Notes: a model not told the origin generated them from the letters alone. Counted from the first letter of the stretch, positions 7,783 to 16,366 are shown. The stretch: DNA of 20,577 nucleotides from an uncultured Deferribacteres bacterium (GCA_964014485.1 CAXHAT010000147.1:1-20577); one strand, 5' to 3'. Numbers and translations: made by a program.

Positions 7783-8967
7783 TTACGGTAAGCATATCTT
7801 TCCTAATACCACATTTTTTGCCGCCCCGGTCGCGCGCGGAATGTTGCCGGGTTCGCGACATAGCGCAGCCCAGGCGAGCGCCGCAAAACAAACCGCTTCT
7901 TTTGCGTCCCCCGCGACGCCGGTATCGTCGAATTTTTTCAACGTTGTTTGAGGGAGCTGGCGCGCTAACATTTTCATCAAGGTCGCATTGTTCGCACCGC
8001 CGCCGCTGACGAAAATTTCGTCGACTTTTGCCTGCCCGGCACAGCGCAAGACGCTTTCAACGATCGTGTCCGCCGTCAATTGCGCTGTGCTGGCGATGAG
8101 ATCAATCGGAGATATACCCGCGTTTTCCGCTTTTTTGCAGAGGGCTGCGACATATTTTTCACCAAATTCTTCCCTGCCTGTGGATTTGGGCCAGGGGCGT
8201 GAGAAATAAGGGTGCTTTTTGAGTTCCGCCAACAGCAACGAGTTTGGCTCCCCAAGCGCCGCCTTCTGCCCGTCCTGATCATACGGCAGGTCAAAATATT
8301 TTTTCAGCAAAGCGTCGATGATCATATTTCCTGGGCCTGAGTCGAACGCAACAACGTCTTCCAGAGAACACCTTTTTGGCAGCCAGGTGAAATTGGCGAT
8401 CCCGCCAATATTTAGAAGAACGCGATTTTGGGCCGGGTGGGCAAAATAAGCATGATCGAACCAGGGGACGAGAGGCGCGCCTTCTCCACCGTAAGCCATG
8501 TCGTTGGCGCGAAAATCTGCAATGACAACCTTGCCGGTTTTCGCCGCGATGACGGCCGGTTCGCCAATTTGCAAAGTGCCGGATGAAGGAAATCCGGCAA
8601 TATTCTCGGCATTTGGAACGTGCTGAATGGTCTGGCCGTGCGAGCCGATAAATTGGATGTTGTCGGCGCCCAATCCGCTTTCCTTGATCGCTTGCTGCGC
8701 TGCATCCGCGAGAGCATGGCCGACCGCCCAGTTCAAGCGCGTCACCGTTTCGGCGTTTCCTCCCGGCGGGGCGGAAGCGAACAGTAATTTTTTCCTTAAA
8801 TCATCGGGATAAGGAATGGTTTTGAAAAACAAGGTTTTAGGCGGGATTCGGCGATCTTTGTGCAGCTCAACGATGACTGTGTCAACGCCATCCAGAGAAG
8901 TGCCCGAAATCAGCCCGACGCCGATAACCGATTTTTGGCGTTTCCAGAAACTAGCGTCGAGCGTCAT
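7783..8967 (-). CDS. anmK: Anhydro-N-acetylmuramic acid kinase
   Basis: GLISGTSLDGVD, GSHGQT, TLQIG, DFRANDMAYGGEGAPL, NIGGIAN, FDSGPGN, PKSTGREEF, GGGANN and KEAVCFA motifs. Confidence 0.97.
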   Translation of the reverse strand: MTLDASFWKRQKSVIGVGLISGTSLDGVDTVIVELHKDRRIPPKTLFFKTIPYPDDLRKKLLFASAPPGGNAETVTRLNWAVGHALADAAQQAIKESGLGADNIQFIGSHGQTIQHVPNAENIAGFPSSGTLQIGEPAVIAAKTGKVVIADFRANDMAYGGEGAPLVPWFDHAYFAHPAQNRVLLNIGGIANFTWLPKRCSLEDVVAFDSGPGNMIIDALLKKYFDLPYDQDGQKAALGEPNSLLLAELKKHPYFSRPWPKSTGREEFGEKYVAALCKKAENAGISPIDLIASTAQLTADTIVESVLRCAGQAKVDEIFVSGGGANNATLMKMLARQLPQTTLKKFDDTGVAGDAKEAVCFAALAWAALCREPGNIPRATGAAKNVVLGKICLP

Positions 8968-9464
8968 TGCGGGTTGTTCTTTCGTTTTTGCGCAGATTCA
9001 ATGAAGACCTTGGCCATGGTGTGGAACATTTCGCGCTGATCCGGCTCGAGCTCTTCTAATTGATCCAGGTACTCGTTCATCTCTTTCAGAATGTCACGCC
9101 CGCTCATGATGCCAATCATCTCGCTCATCCGATCTGCGATCTTTTTTTCCATTATTGTGGACTTTTTTGGCGCAGGGTAGTTTTCAGGTGCGCCTCCCGC
9201 CGCCTTGATGCGTTCAATGCTCTCAGGGTTGGCCTTTTCTTCTAACAGCATTTCGCCTTCGCCAGTGATCAGCCAATTGAGGTTAATTCCGGCGTAGTAA
9301 CATTTTTTCAAAAAACCTGAGCCTGGCTCTTTTGTGTGATCGTTCAAAACCGCATATGCCGTGGACTTTGTCATTCCAGTGGCGCTAATAAAATCGCTGA
9401 TTTTTTTGTAGCCCAATGCGAAGATGGCGATCCGAAGACGTTCGCCTAATGGCTTGTTTTCCAT
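8964..9464 (-). CDS. XRE / phage-CI-like helix-turn-helix transcriptional regulator
   Basis: LGERLR start, HTH segment ISDFISATGMTKSTAYAVLN, and INLNWLITGEGEM tail typical of CI-like repressors. The C-terminus looks helical with no S24 peptidase motif. Stop overlaps the anmK start (ATGA). Confidence 0.8.
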   Translation of the reverse strand: MENKPLGERLRIAIFALGYKKISDFISATGMTKSTAYAVLNDHTKEPGSGFLKKCYYAGINLNWLITGEGEMLLEEKANPESIERIKAAGGAPENYPAPKKSTIMEKKIADRMSEMIGIMSGRDILKEMNEYLDQLEELEPDQREMFHTMAKVFIESAQKRKNNPQ

Positions 9465-9629: not shown

Positions 9630-9815
9630 ATGAGCCGAAATGATTTTATTCTAGCGTTAACATTATTTGCCAAAGAAATACCTTTGCGTTCATTGATTAT
9701 GGCGGCCATGTTGGTTGCAAAAGAGCCTGCTTTGACGACTCTGAAAAGTACGTTTCCTGAAATCTGGAAAGAGTTGGAGATGCGCTCCCGACCTGGGGGA
9801 ATCAATGAACCATAA
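9630..9815 (+). CDS. Small hypothetical protein (61 aa) divergent from the HTH regulator
   Basis: Strong GGAGG RBS (ttGGAGGgaagttgaATG), preceded by an AT-rich divergent intergenic region. No recognised domain. Confidence 0.55.
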   Translation: MSRNDFILALTLFAKEIPLRSLIMAAMLVAKEPALTTLKSTFPEIWKELEMRSRPGGINEP

Positions 9816-9993: not shown

Positions 9994-10012
9994 TGACACT
10001 TTTGAAGTGTCA
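9994..10012. promoter_or_regulatory. Dyad TGACACTT-N3-AAGTGTCA, candidate activator (UAS) or operator site
   Basis: Perfect 8-bp inverted repeat centred about 77 bp upstream of the sigma54-like -24 box. Confidence 0.45.
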
Positions 10013-10078
10013 AGCTTACACTTTTCAATGTTCCATCGTCTTGACTTAATTCTTTGAAAATTAAAGCTTTGTCGTTCG

Positions 10079-10093
10079 TGGCACGATTTTCAC
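10079..10093 (+). promoter_or_regulatory. Putative sigma54 (-24/-12) promoter
   Basis: TGGCACGATTTTCAC: perfect -24 TGGCACG, but the -12 reads AC instead of GC. A sigma54 activator gene lies in the same cluster. Confidence 0.45.
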
Positions 10094-10156
10094 ATTCAAA
10101 TTTCTTGTCTATGTTTGTGAAAATGTTTAGTTAATCGAATGAACGGAGGCAAGATG

Positions 10157-11092
10157 ATGAAACCCGCAAAGCTGTTTTTGGTCGTAACCTTCTCACTTCT
10201 GATTTTCGCTTGTCAGAACAACACGACGATCCAGCCCGGCGACGACGATACCGTCACACTTATTATTAATAAAGGGGTCAGCAATCCTTTTAGCCCGGAC
10301 GCGCTTGCCGGCGAAATTACCGACGACGATTATTTTGCATTTATGTGGGTGGCGCACACGAAAGGCCAGAATAAGGAAGTGCCATTGCCCGGCGGCGGTG
10401 GATGGGGCGGCGTTTATAATGACGTGCTCATTCAGCTCTGGAGCGTGAATGAGCGCGAAAATTATACTTTCGCCGATTTGGGCGATGTGAGCCTCGGCGG
10501 CGACGCGATTCCTGTTTGGGGCGACGGCGGCATTGTAAAATACGAGATTGGCGGCGAATTGCGCGAGTTGACCAATTACTACCAAGTGATTCGAGACGGG
10601 AGTGACGATGATCCGCCGTTTACCGGCGCCAGCGTTTTTTCGATTTCCGGTTCGCCGGACGTACAAGACGTTTCTCAGGAGTTGGCGCTGCCGCAAAAAA
10701 ATATTATTACCAACGTATCGATGGAAGAAGTCGTCGATCCTAACGAAGATTGGGTGATCGAATTTAAACATCCAATTTCGCCGGAAGACGAAGGACTCTT
10801 GCTTTTTGAACGCAACCTGGCGTTCCTTGAAAATTCGTGGGAAAATCAGTTTGAAGGCGTCAGTCACGTCATCATTCAAGCCGCTGAAGTGGCGAATTCG
10901 ATCACGATTCCGAGTTCGGAGCTCCAGGCTTTGCAGCAAAACAGCTCCACCGATCTCTTCATGATTCAACTCACGCTCAAGCCTCAAAAAATCGCGGAAA
11001 TTCCTTTGCTTAACCACGACGGCTCGACCAAAGAAAGCCTGACCGTCGCTTCCTATGTTACACACACGATAGACTTCAGATTTCAAGAGTAA
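10157..11092 (+). CDS. Lipoprotein of unknown function (acidic, beta-rich)
   Basis: GGAGG at 10145-10149 fits ATG 10157 (10154 is an alternative). MKPAKLFLVVTFSLLIFA-C is a signal peptide II lipobox. Mature part is Asp/Glu-rich. Confidence 0.8.
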   Translation: MKPAKLFLVVTFSLLIFACQNNTTIQPGDDDTVTLIINKGVSNPFSPDALAGEITDDDYFAFMWVAHTKGQNKEVPLPGGGGWGGVYNDVLIQLWSVNERENYTFADLGDVSLGGDAIPVWGDGGIVKYEIGGELRELTNYYQVIRDGSDDDPPFTGASVFSISGSPDVQDVSQELALPQKNIITNVSMEEVVDPNEDWVIEFKHPISPEDEGLLLFERNLAFLENSWENQFEGVSHVIIQAAEVANSITIPSSELQALQQNSSTDLFMIQLTLKPQKIAEIPLLNHDGSTKESLTVASYVTHTIDFRFQE

Positions 11093-11121
11093 TCAATCTG
11101 CTGCCTCTAGCTTAAACGAAA

Positions 11122-11214
11122 CGTGTTTGGTGAATCCCGTCTTGTTGCTCTGAAAAATCGCAGTTTGGCGAAACAGAGTCTTGAAGGGTTTTCTGAACAC
11201 GCCGTGAATACGGC
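11122..11214 (+). other. Intergenic structured RNA-like hairpins before the activator start codon
   Basis: CGTGTTTGGTGAATCCC pairs with GGGTTTTCTGAACACG (with G-U pairs); inner pairs GCTCTG/CAGAGT and TCGC/GCGA. A second hairpin GCCGT-GAAT-ACGGC abuts ATG 11215. Confidence 0.45.
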
Positions 11215-13455
11215 ATGAAGAGAAAAATTGCCTCCAGGTTACTGTCTTTCCTTGTTTTTTGGGTTATCCTTATACAGGAAGAAGCGTTCGCGCAAGAAAC
11301 GCCGCTAAACTACATTGCGATCCGGGAAAGCGATGTTAAAAATCTTGGCGGCTGGCCGTTGGATCGCAAGTGGTACGCGATTGCTTTGGAAAATCTATTC
11401 GCGAACGGCGCCGACAGGATTTTCATCGACTTGGCGTTTTCAGACGCGGATATTTCTCACCCCGAATCCGACCGCCTGTTTTTCGAGACTTTGCTCGGCT
11501 TCCCGAAGGCTTTCCTTCTGACCGCCCCCGATGATTTTGCCGCCGACAGCATCAAAGTCCTTGGCAATTTCTCACTCCCCGCCAAGCGATTTTTTGCGCC
11601 CTTCGCCGCCTCATTTCAATTGAAGCGGAATCGCCTCATTTCGAAGGATGACGCTCAAGGCTCTTTCGCTAAGCGTCTTCTTGAGAAAAGCCAGACAGGC
11701 GGGCGACTCGTGGCTTTCCCGGAGTCGGCGCCCGCCTCAAAACTTAGCTTTGTCGAGGTCGTCAAAAATAAAATTCAGAACATCGACGGAGACGTTGTTG
11801 TTGGATTAGAATTGCCGGGAAGATCGTCTTACATCGCCGGTTCGGAAACCCGGGATTTGGTTTCCAGCACTGCGCTGCAAGTCTGGGCGGTGCGACAAAT
11901 TCGTGCCGGTGAATTCGGTTTTTATTGGTCAAGCTGGCGGATTTTCGCCGTTTTTTGTCTGAGCTTGCTGCCTGCGCTGGGCGCATTTTTTTTCAGGAAA
12001 AAAGCATTCTTTTTCCTGTTCGCGGTCGTCGCGGTGATCGTCATTTTTGCTGCATTGAATTTTGCGCGTATCTACGTTTCCCCACTCTGGCTTTTGCTTG
12101 TTTTGATTCCACTGGGCGCGATGCTTTGGCAAATCTCCAAAAACCGAACAACCATAAATTCCGCCTTCGCCGCAAGCAACGATCAAGAGAAGAAGCAGAC
12201 CGCTCCCTCGCAGAACAAGGAAGTCCGTGAACTGCGTGAACGTTTGCAGTTTTATGAGCACTTGACCAGTCACGACGCGCCTTTGCCAAAACCGGAAGCG
12301 AACGGGCTTTATTTTCACCCCAAATCACCGCTTGTCGGCGTGCTGCAAAAAGCCAAACAAATTGCCGAAGCAAAAACCTCGGTTTTGATTTTGGGTGAGT
12401 CAGGCGTCGGCAAAGAAAGAATTGCGCAATTCATCCACGAAAATTCAATCGTTGCGGAGGGGCCGTTCGTCGCCGTCAACTGCGCGGCTTTTAACGAAAA
12501 CCTGATCGAGTCGGAGCTTTTTGGCTATGAGCCGGGCGCTTTTACCGGCGCTACAAAACAAAAACCCGGGCGTTTTGAACTGGCGGACGGCGGGACGCTT
12601 TTTCTCGACGAGATTGCGGAAACCAGCCCGGCGTTTCAGGCGAAGTTGTTGCGCGTGCTGCAGGAAGGTGCGTTTGAGCGCGTTGGAGGCGTTCAACAAA
12701 TTCGTGTTTCCGTTCGAATTGTCGCGGCCACGCACCACGATCTCGAGCAAGAAGTCGCTGAAAAAAAATTTCGGGAAGACTTGTACTATCGTCTGGCTGG
12801 ATACTTGCTTACCGTGCCGCCGCTTAGGGAGCGCCCGATGGACGCAGCTACGCTCTTCAAAGCTTTTGCCGCTGAAGCTGACAAGAAAATCAAGCTTTCC
12901 GATTCCATTGCTTCCTGGGTCGGCCAGCAAAAGTGGCCTGGGAATGTTCGCGAACTGCGCTCGGCGACGGAGCGCGCGATTCTAAACGCTTCGCTTAAAA
13001 AACGCCATTTTCTTTTGCCCGAAGATTTTGAATTGTCAGCGCCGGTCACAACTCCGGAAACGCCAAAAGACGATCTTGCAACACAGATTTTGGTGAAGCT
13101 GCGTGAACATCAATTTCGCCATCGCTCGGTTTCCGAGACGGCGCGCGATCTCGGAATCCACAGGGTCACGGTCACGGAATATCAACGCGGCTTGATTGCA
13201 AAATTCTATGCAGAACAAAATCTGGAGGTGGAAAAAACATTGGCGGCGATTCGTGGCGATGCAACCATCGCCGATGAAGCGCAGTTCAAAAAACGCATCT
13301 CGGGCTACATCGCATCTCTTCACCAAAAAATCGAGGACGGCGTGAAGACTGGAGAATCAGATGTTGAAATCAGGCTTCAGCGTTTTAAAAGTCTGCCCGG
13401 CTATTTCGAAACCGCTTTTGATCATTTGATCAAACAGATTCGAACCCTGACTTAA
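11215..13455 (+). CDS. Membrane-anchored sigma54-dependent activator: CHASE2-like sensor + 3 TM + AAA+ + HTH
   Basis: Signal/TM N-terminus; CHASE2-like IAIRESDVKNLGGWPLDR..GADRIFIDLAFS; three TM helices; Walker A GESGVGKE; ESELFGYEPGAFTGA; Walker B FLDEI; FREDLYYRL; WPGNVREL; HTH SVSETARDLGIHRVTV; extra C-terminal helical tail of about 90 aa. Confidence 0.9.
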   Translation: MKRKIASRLLSFLVFWVILIQEEAFAQETPLNYIAIRESDVKNLGGWPLDRKWYAIALENLFANGADRIFIDLAFSDADISHPESDRLFFETLLGFPKAFLLTAPDDFAADSIKVLGNFSLPAKRFFAPFAASFQLKRNRLISKDDAQGSFAKRLLEKSQTGGRLVAFPESAPASKLSFVEVVKNKIQNIDGDVVVGLELPGRSSYIAGSETRDLVSSTALQVWAVRQIRAGEFGFYWSSWRIFAVFCLSLLPALGAFFFRKKAFFFLFAVVAVIVIFAALNFARIYVSPLWLLLVLIPLGAMLWQISKNRTTINSAFAASNDQEKKQTAPSQNKEVRELRERLQFYEHLTSHDAPLPKPEANGLYFHPKSPLVGVLQKAKQIAEAKTSVLILGESGVGKERIAQFIHENSIVAEGPFVAVNCAAFNENLIESELFGYEPGAFTGATKQKPGRFELADGGTLFLDEIAETSPAFQAKLLRVLQEGAFERVGGVQQIRVSVRIVAATHHDLEQEVAEKKFREDLYYRLAGYLLTVPPLRERPMDAATLFKAFAAEADKKIKLSDSIASWVGQQKWPGNVRELRSATERAILNASLKKRHFLLPEDFELSAPVTTPETPKDDLATQILVKLREHQFRHRSVSETARDLGIHRVTVTEYQRGLIAKFYAEQNLEVEKTLAAIRGDATIADEAQFKKRISGYIASLHQKIEDGVKTGESDVEIRLQRFKSLPGYFETAFDHLIKQIRTLT

Positions 13456-13494
13456 CGCATTTTCAGTTTATTCTTTCGTTAAAAAGCTTGCTGA

Positions 13495-15504
13495 ATGAAA
13501 CCGTTGAAAAAACACTATCGTTTGTTCGCGACAATCACGACGGTCTTTTTCTCCGCATGCCGCCTTTCCGCTCAATTCGTGCCAGAGATTTCGAAAGCCG
13601 GGTGGCGCGCCGTGATTCTGGCAAAAGCGGCGCATGCGACGCACGGCGCTGATTATTTAAACGGAACCTTCATTCTCCGCCGACAAACGGAGACATTCAA
13701 TTTTGGCCTTCGTCTCGAACCCAACCCGTCGCAGCAATTCACATTTTTACCGGGTCGCCTGATCATCAAAACTGCTGACAGCGACGTCACGTTTGCTGAC
13801 AATGAAAATTTGAAAGCGCGTCCTGAGTTTTTTGGCGTTAACAAACCGGCCAGCGTTTTTGGCTGGCTAAAAAAACACGAATTTGAATTTGACGCGGGTC
13901 TGACGCTCATTACGCAAAATGCACGATTTGACACCGCCGATGTACAAACGCTGCGCGATTCATTATATTTTGTTGATTGGCGAACGGTCAAGCAAAACGC
14001 CAATCAATTCTTGCTCTCCGCCTCGCTTGCACAACAGTGGAAAAACTTCAGGATAAGCGCCGGGGTTCTCGCGTTGCCGATTTATCAAAACAATTCTTCC
14101 GTGGTCAAGCGCGGTCGCAATTTTAAAGCGCAGGGCGTTTTTGGGCTGGCTTGGCGGGCAGATCAGTTTTCCGCGAGCGCGACGGCAACAGGGTCTGATC
14201 TGGGTTTGAGTTTTCAAAAAACGCTTGGGCGCACAAACGTTCATGGCGCAGGCACAACCTTGGCAATGCATTTTCAGCGAGGGATTGGCGGTTTTCTGTA
14301 TAACGCGGGGGCATTGCATTTGTCGGCTCCCCTTTCAGATCGAATTCGAGGCTTGATAAGCGTCCAACACGTTCATTCGCCAAATTCCATTACAACAATC
14401 GATACGTTTGAAAACTGGCTGGCGTCAAACGTCTACACGCCGCAGAATTCAGCGGACCTAAATCTTCCCAAAACAGCCGTTGCGTTTGGCGTTGAAATTA
14501 ATTTGAGTCAGGTAACCAAACCGCCGATAGAATTGCTGGATTTTCAACTTGTTCAGCACGAAATATTTTTTTCCAAACGCGCCGTTTACGCGGCAAATCC
14601 GATAGCTCTGGCAACTGTCGTCAATCGTTCGCGGCACGAAGTCAATTTTCATTTAAACGCTGAAACAATGTATGATGCGGGCGATTTCCGTTCGGAGAGA
14701 TTGTCGTTGGAGCCGCGTGAGAAGCGAGCGATTCCGATCTATCTTCATCTCAACCGGTCAAGGAACGTTGCAGCGCCTCTTGCTGATCGCCTCGAGATTT
14801 CAGCGAGAATGGACAAGATCTCAATCGCATTAGCGGACGCGCCGCTGACGGTTTACGGCAAGAATGCGTGGAGTGGAAAAACGTGGGAGTTGAAGTTTTT
14901 TGCCTCACCGGAAGACCCGATCATAAAAAACGAGGCAAAAAAAGCTTATCTCTCCGCACTTGCCGTTGGCAGCGAGCACCATGATGAGCAAAAGCTTCGC
15001 TTTAAACGACTCGCGTCTTTCCTTGACAATCTGGGCGGAAGACTGAATTATGTTCCGGATCCAATCACGACCATTGAGATCGACAACGTGCAATTCCCAG
15101 GAGAAACTTTGATGAAAGGCGGCGGCGATTGCGAAGATTTGACGGTTTGTCTCGCATCAGCGCTGGGCGCCGTTGGTTACGCAACCGCCGTTGTCGACGT
15201 CCGCCCGCCTGCAAGCGACAATTTGCGAATTCCGCGCGCCAGTCCCGCATCGATAGGCCATGTTTTCTTGTTGATTGATACCGGGATTTCGCCGGAACAC
15301 GCCGAAATTTTGGACTTGACGGAATTTCAGGCGATTACGCGCACAAGCCGCTCCGGCGTTCCGACGATCTGGCTGCCGATTGAAACCTCCGTTATCAACA
15401 AAGGCTTTGAAGCGGCGTTCAGTGAAGGCGTGAAAATTTATTATCAGGAAGTTTTTGAAAATAACGGCATTGAAAAAGGCAGGATTCATGTTTACGATTT
15501 TTAA
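13495..15504 (+). CDS. Exported protein: beta-rich (possible OM barrel) N-half, Ig-like segment, C-terminal transglutaminase-like domain
   Basis: Signal peptide ending RLSA-Q; amphipathic strands (EFEFDAGLTL, FRISAGV, VAFGVEINL); C-terminal LNYVPDP..VQFPGETL..GGGDCEDL..GHVFLLIDTG..WLPIETS, giving a Cys-His-acid arrangement. Confidence 0.7.
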   Translation: MKPLKKHYRLFATITTVFFSACRLSAQFVPEISKAGWRAVILAKAAHATHGADYLNGTFILRRQTETFNFGLRLEPNPSQQFTFLPGRLIIKTADSDVTFADNENLKARPEFFGVNKPASVFGWLKKHEFEFDAGLTLITQNARFDTADVQTLRDSLYFVDWRTVKQNANQFLLSASLAQQWKNFRISAGVLALPIYQNNSSVVKRGRNFKAQGVFGLAWRADQFSASATATGSDLGLSFQKTLGRTNVHGAGTTLAMHFQRGIGGFLYNAGALHLSAPLSDRIRGLISVQHVHSPNSITTIDTFENWLASNVYTPQNSADLNLPKTAVAFGVEINLSQVTKPPIELLDFQLVQHEIFFSKRAVYAANPIALATVVNRSRHEVNFHLNAETMYDAGDFRSERLSLEPREKRAIPIYLHLNRSRNVAAPLADRLEISARMDKISIALADAPLTVYGKNAWSGKTWELKFFASPEDPIIKNEAKKAYLSALAVGSEHHDEQKLRFKRLASFLDNLGGRLNYVPDPITTIEIDNVQFPGETLMKGGGDCEDLTVCLASALGAVGYATAVVDVRPPASDNLRIPRASPASIGHVFLLIDTGISPEHAEILDLTEFQAITRTSRSGVPTIWLPIETSVINKGFEAAFSEGVKIYYQEVFENNGIEKGRIHVYDF

Positions 15505-15550
15505 AAAACCAAACATTGGGCGCTTAATATATGCCCGGAGCCTTCTTTTC

Positions 15551-15644
15551 TTGTCATTCCGAAGGAATCTTTTTAGGTCACAAGGAAAAGACGTTTTTTC
15601 AGCCTCGGACCTAAGGTTTAAAAAAGATGCTTCCAGCATGACAA
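15551..15644. repeat. TGTCAT...ATGACA-tagged (CGTC-type REP/MITE-like) palindromic element
   Basis: Left arm TTGTCATTCCGAAGGAATCTTTTT matches the reverse complement of the right arm (TTGTCATGCTGGAAGCATCTTTTT) at 19 of 24 positions. Inner pair TTAGGTC/GACCTAA. Confidence 0.7.
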
Positions 15645-15667
15645 TTGGGGGCTTTCTATGCACGCTC

Positions 15668-16366
15668 TTGTGGCGGTTCCTTGCAATTTGCTTTATTACG
15701 ATTCTCGGCTTTCAAGATGGCCAAGCGCAAACGGCTTGGGTGAAGATCGATTCCGGTGCAGCGCTTTATCTCAATCCGTTGACTTCCGAGTGGGTTCCGA
15801 TTGACGGCAAGGAAAAGATTCCTTTGAAGACTTTTCTGCTGACCAAGCCAAAAGCTTCGTCAATGCTTTTCGTCGAAACCGAAGTTATCACATTGCCGGA
15901 AAACGCTTATTTTTATTTGGAAGACGCGCTGCCGCGCCGTCAAACGCAGATTGTTGCAGCGCTCACACGGATCGAAGCGGAACAATTGCCGGAGAACGTT
16001 TCCGAGCCGGACAGCAGCGCCCGCCGCCGATTCGGCTTGACTTACGGGAGAAAAGCCAAAACGGCCGTGGAACAAAAAACCATCCCGTTTGAGCAGGAAC
16101 GGCTGCGCGCCGTTGACTGGTTTTACGCTCAAAATCGTCCGGACGCCAGCGTGGTCTGCCTGAAACGCATGCTGGCCAAATATCCTGCGCTTTATCACAA
16201 CGCAAGCTATGTTGAACGCCTGTTCTCACTCTACGAAAAACTGGAATTGTACGGCTTTTTGCTGGACGAGTCCCGTCGATTAACGCAAAGCGCGAGAATG
16301 GGAGAGTTGGCTAAAAAATGGCAGAGTATTGCACGAGAGCGGTTGGCGCAAATCAGGAAAAAATGA
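15668..16366 (+). CDS. Exported protein with FecR-like N-terminal domain and C-terminal TPR-like helices
   Basis: TTG 15668 gives a clean signal peptide (MWRFLAICFITILGFQDGQA-Q); the exact start is uncertain. AWVKIDSG..EWVPI..FLLTKPKASSML..ITLPENAYFYL resembles the FecR pattern. The C-terminus (AVDWFYAQNRPDASVVCLKRMLAKYP) looks TPR-like. Confidence 0.6.
   Translation: MWRFLAICFITILGFQDGQAQTAWVKIDSGAALYLNPLTSEWVPIDGKEKIPLKTFLLTKPKASSMLFVETEVITLPENAYFYLEDALPRRQTQIVAALTRIEAEQLPENVSEPDSSARRRFGLTYGRKAKTAVEQKTIPFEQERLRAVDWFYAQNRPDASVVCLKRMLAKYPALYHNASYVERLFSLYEKLELYGFLLDESRRLTQSARMGELAKKWQSIARERLAQIRKK

Follow-up and report, generated by a model that had tools for sequence, protein, structure and literature searches.

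Gene content and conservation of the cassette

The DNA analysed here (the window; 20,577 nucleotides, GCA_964014485.1, CAXHAT010000147.1:1-20577) is an entire contig (C147) of the 8.4-Mb genome of an uncultured Deferribacteres bacterium (G000), and carries at 9994-16366 a cassette of four genes preceded by a candidate enhancer and a sigma-54-type promoter. The genes encode, in order, a lipoprotein, a bacterial enhancer-binding protein (bEBP) with a CHASE2 domain (the activator), a 669-residue protein modelled as an outer-membrane barrel, an immunoglobulin (Ig)-like sandwich and a protease-like fold, and a protein designated P4 (table 1). An earlier reading of the window by itself (the sequence-only reading) had described four co-oriented genes with products all directed to the envelope, and this was confirmed, the open reading frames lying on the + strand between 10154 and 16366. 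The cassette is a real, conserved system, a form of trans-envelope CHASE2 signalling. Because no terminator-like site was present when one was looked for in the gap between the lipoprotein and activator genes, the promoter probably transcribes the whole four-gene operon, i.e. the system would be autoregulated.

Table 1. Positions of the cassette genes, regulatory elements and motifs in the window.
Feature	Position	Strand	Remarks
Candidate upstream activating sequence, inverted repeat TGACACTT-N3-AAGTGTCA	9994-10012	+	predicted from sequence and conservation
Third half-site, direct repeat	10016-10023	+	22 bp after first; whole element 9994..10025
Sigma-54-type promoter TGGCACGATTTTCACA	10079-10094	+	perfect -24 box TGGCACG; 83 bp past first half-site; AT-rich spacer
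Lipoprotein gene	10154-11092	+	312 aa; first in operon
CHASE2-bEBP activator gene	11215-13455	+	746 aa
GAFTGA motif	12535-12552	+	activator residues 441-446
Barrel-Ig-protease-fold gene	13495-15504	+	669 aa
Candidate catalytic residues	Cys546 (15130), His589 (15259), Glu630 (15382)	+	assigned by conservation
P4 gene	15638-16366	+	242 aa
P4 linker motif T-Y-G137	16040-16048	+	conserved in family

The genes were found together in other genomes, as the sequence-only reading had supposed. Across 167 genomes of the phylum (kin not independent, many genomes incomplete; 60 regions examined from them), the families form nested sets, with the activator C-terminus in 73, the P4 family in 70 and the protease, at a strict threshold, in 66, and all three co-occur in about 40%. 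The cassette is also present in a further phylum, that of Ca. Thermochlorobacter, where the P4 profile matched 42 of 301 sampled genomes (47 matches in all). Twenty of these matches were examined and comprised 18 full-length P4 and two FecR-domain proteins; the protease gene lies directly upstream at all 18 full-length P4 loci, and 16 of them have a CHASE2-bEBP in the locus.

The loci were sorted into subtypes. In the common subtype A the order is activator, enhancer/promoter, small barrel, barrel-Ig-protease and P4; genes for TonB-dependent receptors and for lipoproteins, DUF4097 or others, often come next. Subtype D (activator, two lipoproteins, protease and then P4) accounts for 9 of the 18 Thermochlorobacter-phylum loci. 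Subtype B, to which the window belongs, was found in 3 of the 167 genomes of its own phylum and at 12 loci in 11 genomes overall (L079 is the same stretch as G026:C363 and was counted once). Activator, protease and P4 genes are contiguous at 11 of these 12 loci and spread over three contigs in G026; at four of the loci a gene for a secreted protein of about 1,030 residues lies between the lipoprotein and the activator.

The lipoprotein has a lipobox (LIFA-C20, Cys20), is predicted to be beta-rich and gave no match against Pfam and NCBIfam; its neighbours in the ESM Atlas are unnamed Ignavibacteriota/Bacteroidota clusters. Its homologues lead seven other subtype-B loci (hidden Markov model (HMM) E 1e-7 to 2.5e-4, or direct similarity). 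A lipoprotein gene lies upstream at 10 of the 12 loci, and at eight, the window included, homology to the window protein is detectable in this lipoprotein or in its neighbour; the window protein also matches the subtype-D lipoprotein encoded immediately before the protease gene (hhalign 90%). As the first gene after the promoter it would be a sigma-54 target, as proposed, but it is also a conserved core member of the cassette.

Several further arrangements were observed. Subtype C (L096-L098, L119, L120) has a 600-residue barrel ahead of the barrel-protease and the recognition helix GHLHRSTVTEY; in L096 two candidate sigma-54 boxes come after an enhancer made of CCGAC direct repeats. The genome of the window holds a second cassette, of subtype A, at G000:C103 (L003:2415-9972), with its activator on G000:C76 (L002:10784-13342); it consists of a small barrel, a barrel-Ig-protease, a TonB-dependent receptor, a DUF4249 lipoprotein, P4 and a DUF4097 lipoprotein, and carries its own enhancer and a canonical sigma-54 box. 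At L066/L067 (G006, G003) an opposite-strand cytochrome c oxidase-like cluster parts the activator from the barrel operon, and enhancer and promoter stay with the operon. Another conserved trio of the Thermochlorobacter phylum (L159:2842-11551, L160:1-8093) comprises a histidine kinase, a FecR-Ig protein of about 600 residues and an exported protein of 1,400-1,600 residues. Within the window, a hairpin (GCCGT-GAAT-ACGGC, 11200-11217) directly before the activator start codon could damp translation. Upstream of the cassette, a Cro/CI-like helix-turn-helix (HTH) gene at 8964-9464 (-; weak matches to Pfam HTH_19 and Phage_CI_repr) is faced by a divergent 61-residue open reading frame at 9630-9815 (+; good ribosome-binding site, no NCBIfam match), and the two resemble a phage-type repressor pair inserted 5' of the cassette, which was not seen at other subtype-B loci.

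Activator, candidate enhancer and sigma-54-type promoter

The activator runs from a signal-peptide-like N-terminus through CHASE2, three transmembrane (TM) segments, a linker and an AAA+ domain to an HTH and a C-terminal extension. CHASE2 was matched at residues 31-184 (PF05226, E 1.4e-7, 31.8 bits against a cut-off of 26.3); the domain is shortened (about 27-240), aligns with internal deletions to the full-length CHASE2 of subtype A (hhalign 98%), and is followed by three hydrophobic segments at 240-309. Sigma54_activat was matched at residues 375-530 (PF00158, E 2e-67, 226 bits against a cut-off of 20.2), and Walker A (GESGVGKE), Walker B (TLFLDEI) and the R-finger (FREDLYYRL) were read off the sequence. 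The C-terminus holds the HTH RDLGIHRVTVTEY, in a conserved region, and a family-specific helical extension for which no convincing relative was found in the PDB (best E 0.019). From its AFA-Q end we infer that the N-terminal segment is cleaved. Among the NCBIfam matches listed, the protein stayed below each equivalog cut-off. The predicted inner-membrane architecture, CHASE2-3TM-AAA+(GAFTGA)-HTH, was thus recovered with both Pfam domains above cut-off and GAFTGA intact, and CHASE2 leads straight into an intact bEBP, neither a kinase nor a cyclase coming in between. The genome has one copy of rpoN (G000:C224).

In a quick tree the subtype-A and subtype-B activators form one clade (SH-aLRT 96) and those of subtype C (L119, L120) fall outside it; Thermochlorobacter sequences nest within B, which suggests transfer between phyla. 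Loops of the GAFTGA type are intact in the subtype-B activators. Variants of the motif were seen at single loci: GAYTGA in subtype-B L153, and GAFTNA or GSFTNA in the subtype-D activators L152, L156 and L157, where a -24 box is kept ahead of the operon and the -12 sides are atypical.

The -24 box and upstream dyad reported by the sequence-only reading are both present and conserved; the -12 box is non-canonical (TCAC, with the G at -13 replaced by A). Comparative support was needed for this promoter, because the window holds fewer two-mismatch sigma-54 sites than chance predicts (15 against 26 expected), the site taken alone is no better than chance, and significance comes only through conservation. 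Likewise, ACACTT-N15/16-ACACTT occurs once in the 8.4-Mb genome and 0.55 occurrences are expected, so its rarity alone proves little. The exact repeat also precedes the cassette in G108, G026, G184 and G189, and a half-site does so in G167, G179 and G174:C5; among the 10 subtype-B loci with a leading lipoprotein, the window included, five have the exact repeat, three a half-site and two a degenerate site or none. All 10 have a TGGCA(C/T) box ahead of the first lipoprotein gene, for which the chance per locus, tested at four loci, is below 2%. The base at -13 is A in five of these promoters, T in three and G in two (five of the 10 loci come from one small class); since it is other than G in eight of the 10, the unusual -12 box is best read as a trait of the subtype and not as decay.

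In subtype A, a different predicted enhancer, TGCGGAA..TTCCGCA, was found in 40 of 50 loci within 6 kb 5' of the protease gene, and several of the 10 loci without it end close to a contig edge. A TGG..TTG sigma-54 box lies at most 130 nt from 34 of the 40 enhancers, where 0.1 are expected from shuffles. The distances cluster at 86-88, 95-99 or 107-110 nt (for a 10.5-bp period Rayleigh R is 0.84, related genomes not being independent) and show the helical phasing expected for looping from a putative enhancer. Recognition helix and enhancer co-vary between subtypes, GNRDRGTITEY occurring with TGCGGAA in A and LxIHRxTVTEY with ACACTT in B. Taken together, these patterns make it very likely that the repeats are the binding site of the activator and that sigma-54 is its route to transcription.

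Across the genome, intergenic TGGCA sites are richer in G at -13 than coding ones (0.47 against 0.28). In those 5' of genes TTG is over-represented at -15 to -13, but C is not at -12 (A 0.36, C 0.26), which suggests that the sigma-54 of this lineage is less strict at -12. A search for a wider regulon with a looser enhancer and promoter pattern in 10 genomes gave background-level matches apart from the cassette sites, and in two Thermochlorobacter genomes the enhancer pattern was found only within or at the ends of unrelated genes.

The barrel-enzyme protein and P4

The 669-residue protein gave no match against Pfam and NCBIfam, and no homologue was found by a word-based protein search, whereas genome searches did recover homologues, which Pfam assigns to Transglut_core. 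A structural model built from a 17-row alignment (mean predicted local distance difference test (pLDDT) 61, mostly 80-95 in the C-terminal third and below 50 in the N-terminal half of the barrel, mostly residues 20-212) comprises an outer-membrane barrel (about 35-340), an Ig-like sandwich (343-444) and a transglutaminase/papain core (460-669). In VIA-align the barrel matched 4rl8 with Z 13.8 (rmsd 3.6, 204 aligned); the top structural matches are all outer-membrane barrels and the best are 12-stranded, but the low pLDDT leaves the strand number uncertain. Matches of the sandwich reached Z of about 8, and those of the core Z 10.0 (3kd4) and 8.7 (PNGase, 2f4o). The candidate catalytic residues Cys546, His589 and Glu630, the last within W-x-P-x-E, are invariant in 55 of 55 aligned homologues. 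The exported beta-rich protein with a Cys-His-acid transglutaminase-like domain that had been proposed was therefore upheld by both the model and the triad. When the protease profile was compared with the PDB, the only matches with E below 0.001 were 4u65_E (7e-5) and 4fgo (9e-5), which are LapG structures (PMC4359373, available text).

Among the homologues, the Ig-enzyme module is carried by small OmpW/OMP_b-brl barrels in subtype A and by PorP/FadL/PorV-like barrels in subtype D and other paralogues. Because the module occurs on such varied barrels, the barrel is taken as an anchor or receptor and the enzyme would lie on the periplasmic side. Elsewhere in the genome of the window, at G000:C152 (L004:4221-12107) and G000:C128 (L005:6785-9232), Ig-transglutaminase modules on PorV/FadL-like barrels or tetratricopeptide-repeat (TPR) proteins adjoin a CHASE2-CHAT (caspase-like) protein and other CHAT-domain genes; here the same input arm is possibly wired to a protease output.

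P4 consists of a signal peptide, a beta-meander domain resembling the N-terminal part of FecR and the LapA retention domain, a helix, a linker and a TPR-like helical domain. The window P4 had no match above cut-off in Pfam/NCBIfam and no direct match to FecR or TPR, and is tied to its relatives by profile (B-C 95%, C-A 99.6%, B-(A+C) 93%, direct B-A only 25%). Within the family, retention_LapA (NF033682) was matched in 33 of 56 members (best E 2e-6, all below the 50-bit cut-off), the matches listed covering profile positions of about 3-69 of 145 at 15-24 bits; the C-terminal half is TPR-like, with a YbgF-type TPR match below cut-off in 32 of 56. FecR (PF04773) was matched in 5 of 18 (best E 0.07), and in 2 of 30 distant members at E 0.01-0.05. 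The family profile aligned to two true FecR-domain proteins at 96% over 66 columns (subtype B alone, 0.1%). A PDB search with the beta domain gave no match, only TPR proteins standing among the matches listed. The description of P4 as an exported FecR-like/TPR protein thus stands for export and, through the family, for the TPR-like half; the FecR part is only transitive and covers about 65 residues.

The linker is variable except for one motif ending in Gly (Gly in 69 of 74, Ala in 5 of 74). P4 was also considered as a FecR-type anti-sigma factor and rejected, only the first beta-meander (about 65 residues) being common to FecR-domain proteins and retention modules; by hydropathy it has a signal-peptide-like segment only, and not the cytoplasmic domain and TM helix of FecR anti-sigma factors. 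Identity of the linker Gly with the FecR Gly-Thr self-cleavage site is not claimed, as the profile alignment to FecR-domain proteins ends before it. An extracytoplasmic function (ECF) sigma gene adjoins 2 of 20 loci surveyed (L069, L075) and none lies in the window. A three-chain complex prediction (Ig-protease, CHASE2, and P4 as the scored partner, an alignment being supplied for every chain) gave 0.77, with 0.00 and 0.00 in partner-replaced controls; the protease-replaced control scored 0.82, which puts the prediction below the specificity mark, and it was used neither for nor against binding.

Signalling model and alternatives

P4 and the barrel-enzyme would form the input arm of the system, since both go with the activator in their occurrence among genomes, in their subtype and in the order of the genes, whereas the accessory genes change, and since other bacteria are known to link a barrel or a FecR-domain protein to CHASE2. 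The sequence-only reading is thus supported in part, its signal order of enzyme, adaptor and CHASE2 standing as a proposal. P4 would have the layout of a LapG substrate, with a retention-like beta domain, a helix and a short conserved linker motif, and with the TPR domain in place of an adhesin. More weakly, we infer that the enzyme is a protease with P4 as its substrate. The full model, an autoregulated outside-in envelope signalling cassette ending directly on sigma-54, is given an even chance. In it, the membrane-anchored CHASE2-bEBP would bind the subtype-specific ACACTT repeats and activate the -24 promoter downstream, leading to transcription of the lipoprotein and probably of the entire operon; the barrel would tether a LapG-like protease with a Cys-His-Glu triad to the outer membrane, so placed that the catalytic domain lies in the periplasm; the access of the protease to P4 would change when the barrel, the lipoprotein or both receive a cue from outside; and P4, intact or cut near T-Y-G137, would be the periplasmic ligand that switches CHASE2 and hence the AAA+ domain. 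As a speculation, the subtype-B promoter, being weak at -13, may stay off as long as the activator is not engaged. A more specific version is tentative, and we hold it possible but doubtful: a LapG/retention-module pair, not known otherwise than for the release of adhesins from inside, used in reverse, in which the barrel gates the tethered protease, the processed retention-TPR messenger is the CHASE2 ligand and CHASE2 drives the bEBP, one branch having co-evolved its own enhancer and a sigma-54 promoter class without G at -13.

Close in layout is the NsrA-CyaD1/CyaD2/CyaK-Clr pathway of Sinorhizobium meliloti, where CHASE2 cyclases of the inner membrane take their input from the outer-membrane beta-barrel NsrA and control transcription (PMC13001267, as far as the available text describes it); the cassette would likewise relay a signal from outside through a barrel of the outer membrane to CHASE2 and on to transcription. 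The cassette is like this pathway but not a member of it: its CHASE2 is part of a sigma-54 bEBP, there is neither a cyclase nor cAMP nor a CRP-family regulator, its barrel carries a cysteine-protease fold, and the beta/TPR protein and the lipoprotein are separate genes. LapD-LapG-LapA and DvhD-DvhG-DvhA share with it a transglutaminase-like Cys protease with acidic residues beside the nucleophile, and a partner whose beta domain, of retention type (putatively so in P4), precedes a helix and a short motif (PMC4359373, PMC13090378; available portions). According to the accessible part of the latter, LapG/DvhG substrates have a retention domain, a helix and a cleavage motif, the retention domain docking on DvhG (PMC13090378). 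The Lap system, as those sources present it, works inside-out, leading from cyclic di-GMP to the release of an adhesin, and its protease, soluble or bound to the inner membrane, has a C-H-D triad, whereas the cassette protease is fused to an outer-membrane barrel and has C-H-E, and no LapD-like gene was seen in the cassettes examined; P4 ends in TPRs and not in an adhesin, lacks DP/[TAP]AAG, and the membrane protein that goes with the pair activates transcription.

LysM-FecR genes flank CHASE2 kinases in Burkholderia (BiofilmReg) and P. aeruginosa, and these operons resemble the cassette in having an exported FecR-domain protein beside a CHASE2-3TM sensor and a further exported protein (PMC5192318, text in part); as described there, they differ in a two-component output via an OmpR-type regulator and a full FecR with LysM, and have no barrel-protease and no sigma-54. 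FecA-FecR-FecI likewise governs transcription through an outer-membrane protein, a periplasmic relay and proteolytic steps (PMC12036975, available text). The cassette core, in contrast, is without a TonB-dependent transducer, a membrane-spanning anti-sigma factor and an ECF sigma factor, and P4 has only the first 65 or so residues of the FecR-type beta region. With NifA, NorR and PspF the activator shares a GAFTGA AAA+ core, an HTH and an enhancer about 100 bp 5' of a -24/-12 promoter (PMC7057263, accessible sections), but its sensory domain is periplasmic and joined via three TM helices.

Several observations weigh against the model. The window promoter lacks the G at -13 that 38 of 39 subtype-A promoters keep (counted on the first subtype-A boxes with the -12 side unconstrained), and G168 and G350, both of subtype B, have no upstream lipoprotein or recognisable promoter. 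The window P4 has no FecR or retention_LapA match and is missed by an HMM built from subtype A only. A true FecR-domain protein also matches the retention model (E 7e-4), making the likeness one of superfamily level, and the LapG consensus DP...[T/A/P]AAG is absent from 74 of 74 P4 linkers; for these two reasons the retention likeness of P4 is a lead and no identification. The acid after His is Glu, against Asp in the C-H-D triad of LapG. Finally, in subtypes A and D the sigma-54 promoter precedes the genes for the protease and for P4, which could therefore be outputs. This last point favours an alternative in which CHASE2 itself senses a small molecule or the envelope state and the barrel-protease, P4 and lipoprotein are induced effectors, for example an envelope-remodelling complex, as do the occurrence of the activator elsewhere (cassette C103, activator C76) and the frequent co-transcription of extra barrels, TonB-dependent receptors, DUF4097/DUF4249 lipoproteins and secreted proteins. 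We consider it unlikely, though to be taken seriously: while those accessory genes vary, protease and P4 never part from the phylogenetic profile of the activator, they directly follow it at 11 of 12 subtype-B loci and are kept where lipoprotein and promoter are missing (G168, G350), and P4, protease and CHASE2 split jointly into subtypes. In cell-surface signalling, moreover, the receptor is normally also a target.

The same wiring could work without proteolysis if the transglutaminase-fold domain were a transamidase or deamidase, or bound P4, and P4 relayed a conformational signal in the manner of NsrA. The assignment of homologues to Transglut_core, the Glu of the triad, the missing LapG consensus site and the presence of PNGase and uncharacterised proteins among the structural neighbours all speak for this, but the nearest solved relatives by profile are LapG proteases, down to the acidic residues flanking Cys, and the otherwise variable P4 linker keeps one small-residue motif, which leaves it distinctly unlikely. 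A still smaller probability is given to the 669-residue protein being an inverse autotransporter that displays its Ig-enzyme module at the cell surface to act on outside substrates. Intimin has such a layout, a barrel of the 12-strand class followed by an Ig domain, and autotransporter barrels are among the structural matches; the same module, however, sits on small OmpW/OMP_b-brl and PorP/FadL/PorV-like barrels, an OmpW-type barrel of that size is not expected to pass a passenger, and the barrel model is of low confidence. The least probable alternative, to which we give very little credence, is that the subtype-B site does not function as a sigma-54 promoter, the dyad serving as operator for the divergent Cro/CI-like gene. 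That gene lies 530 bp upstream, and G is missing at -13 although intergenic TGGCA sites are enriched for it there; yet -24 box, spacer and repeat are kept at loci whose upstream genes are unrelated to the HTH gene, and the subtype-B activators retain intact GAFTGA-type loops.

No description of a CHASE2-bEBP or of the cassette was found in the literature searched (subscription papers and survey supplements lay outside its coverage), and nothing on membrane-bound bEBPs of this kind or on CHASE2 with a transglutaminase; in the accessible text of the sigma-54 surveys searched, supplements again being outside coverage, the term 'CHASE' is absent. What this analysis establishes is the profile across the phylum, the division into subtypes, the evidence from enhancer-promoter phasing, the shift at -13 and the LapG/retention lead. 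In 2016 the cues sensed by CHASE2 were stated as unknown (PMC5192318, text in part), and the cassette offers a compact system for CHASE2 sensing, with a 215-residue candidate protein ligand and a possible generating enzyme beside the sensor in more than 100 genomes. If the model is true, sigma-54 would be controlled across both membranes without a kinase, a second messenger or an ECF sigma factor, and gene control would join adhesin release among the uses of LapG-type proteolysis. For the divergence of sigma-54 promoters in FCB-group bacteria, ready predictions come from the two putative enhancer/HTH pairs and from the -12 box peculiar to the subtype.

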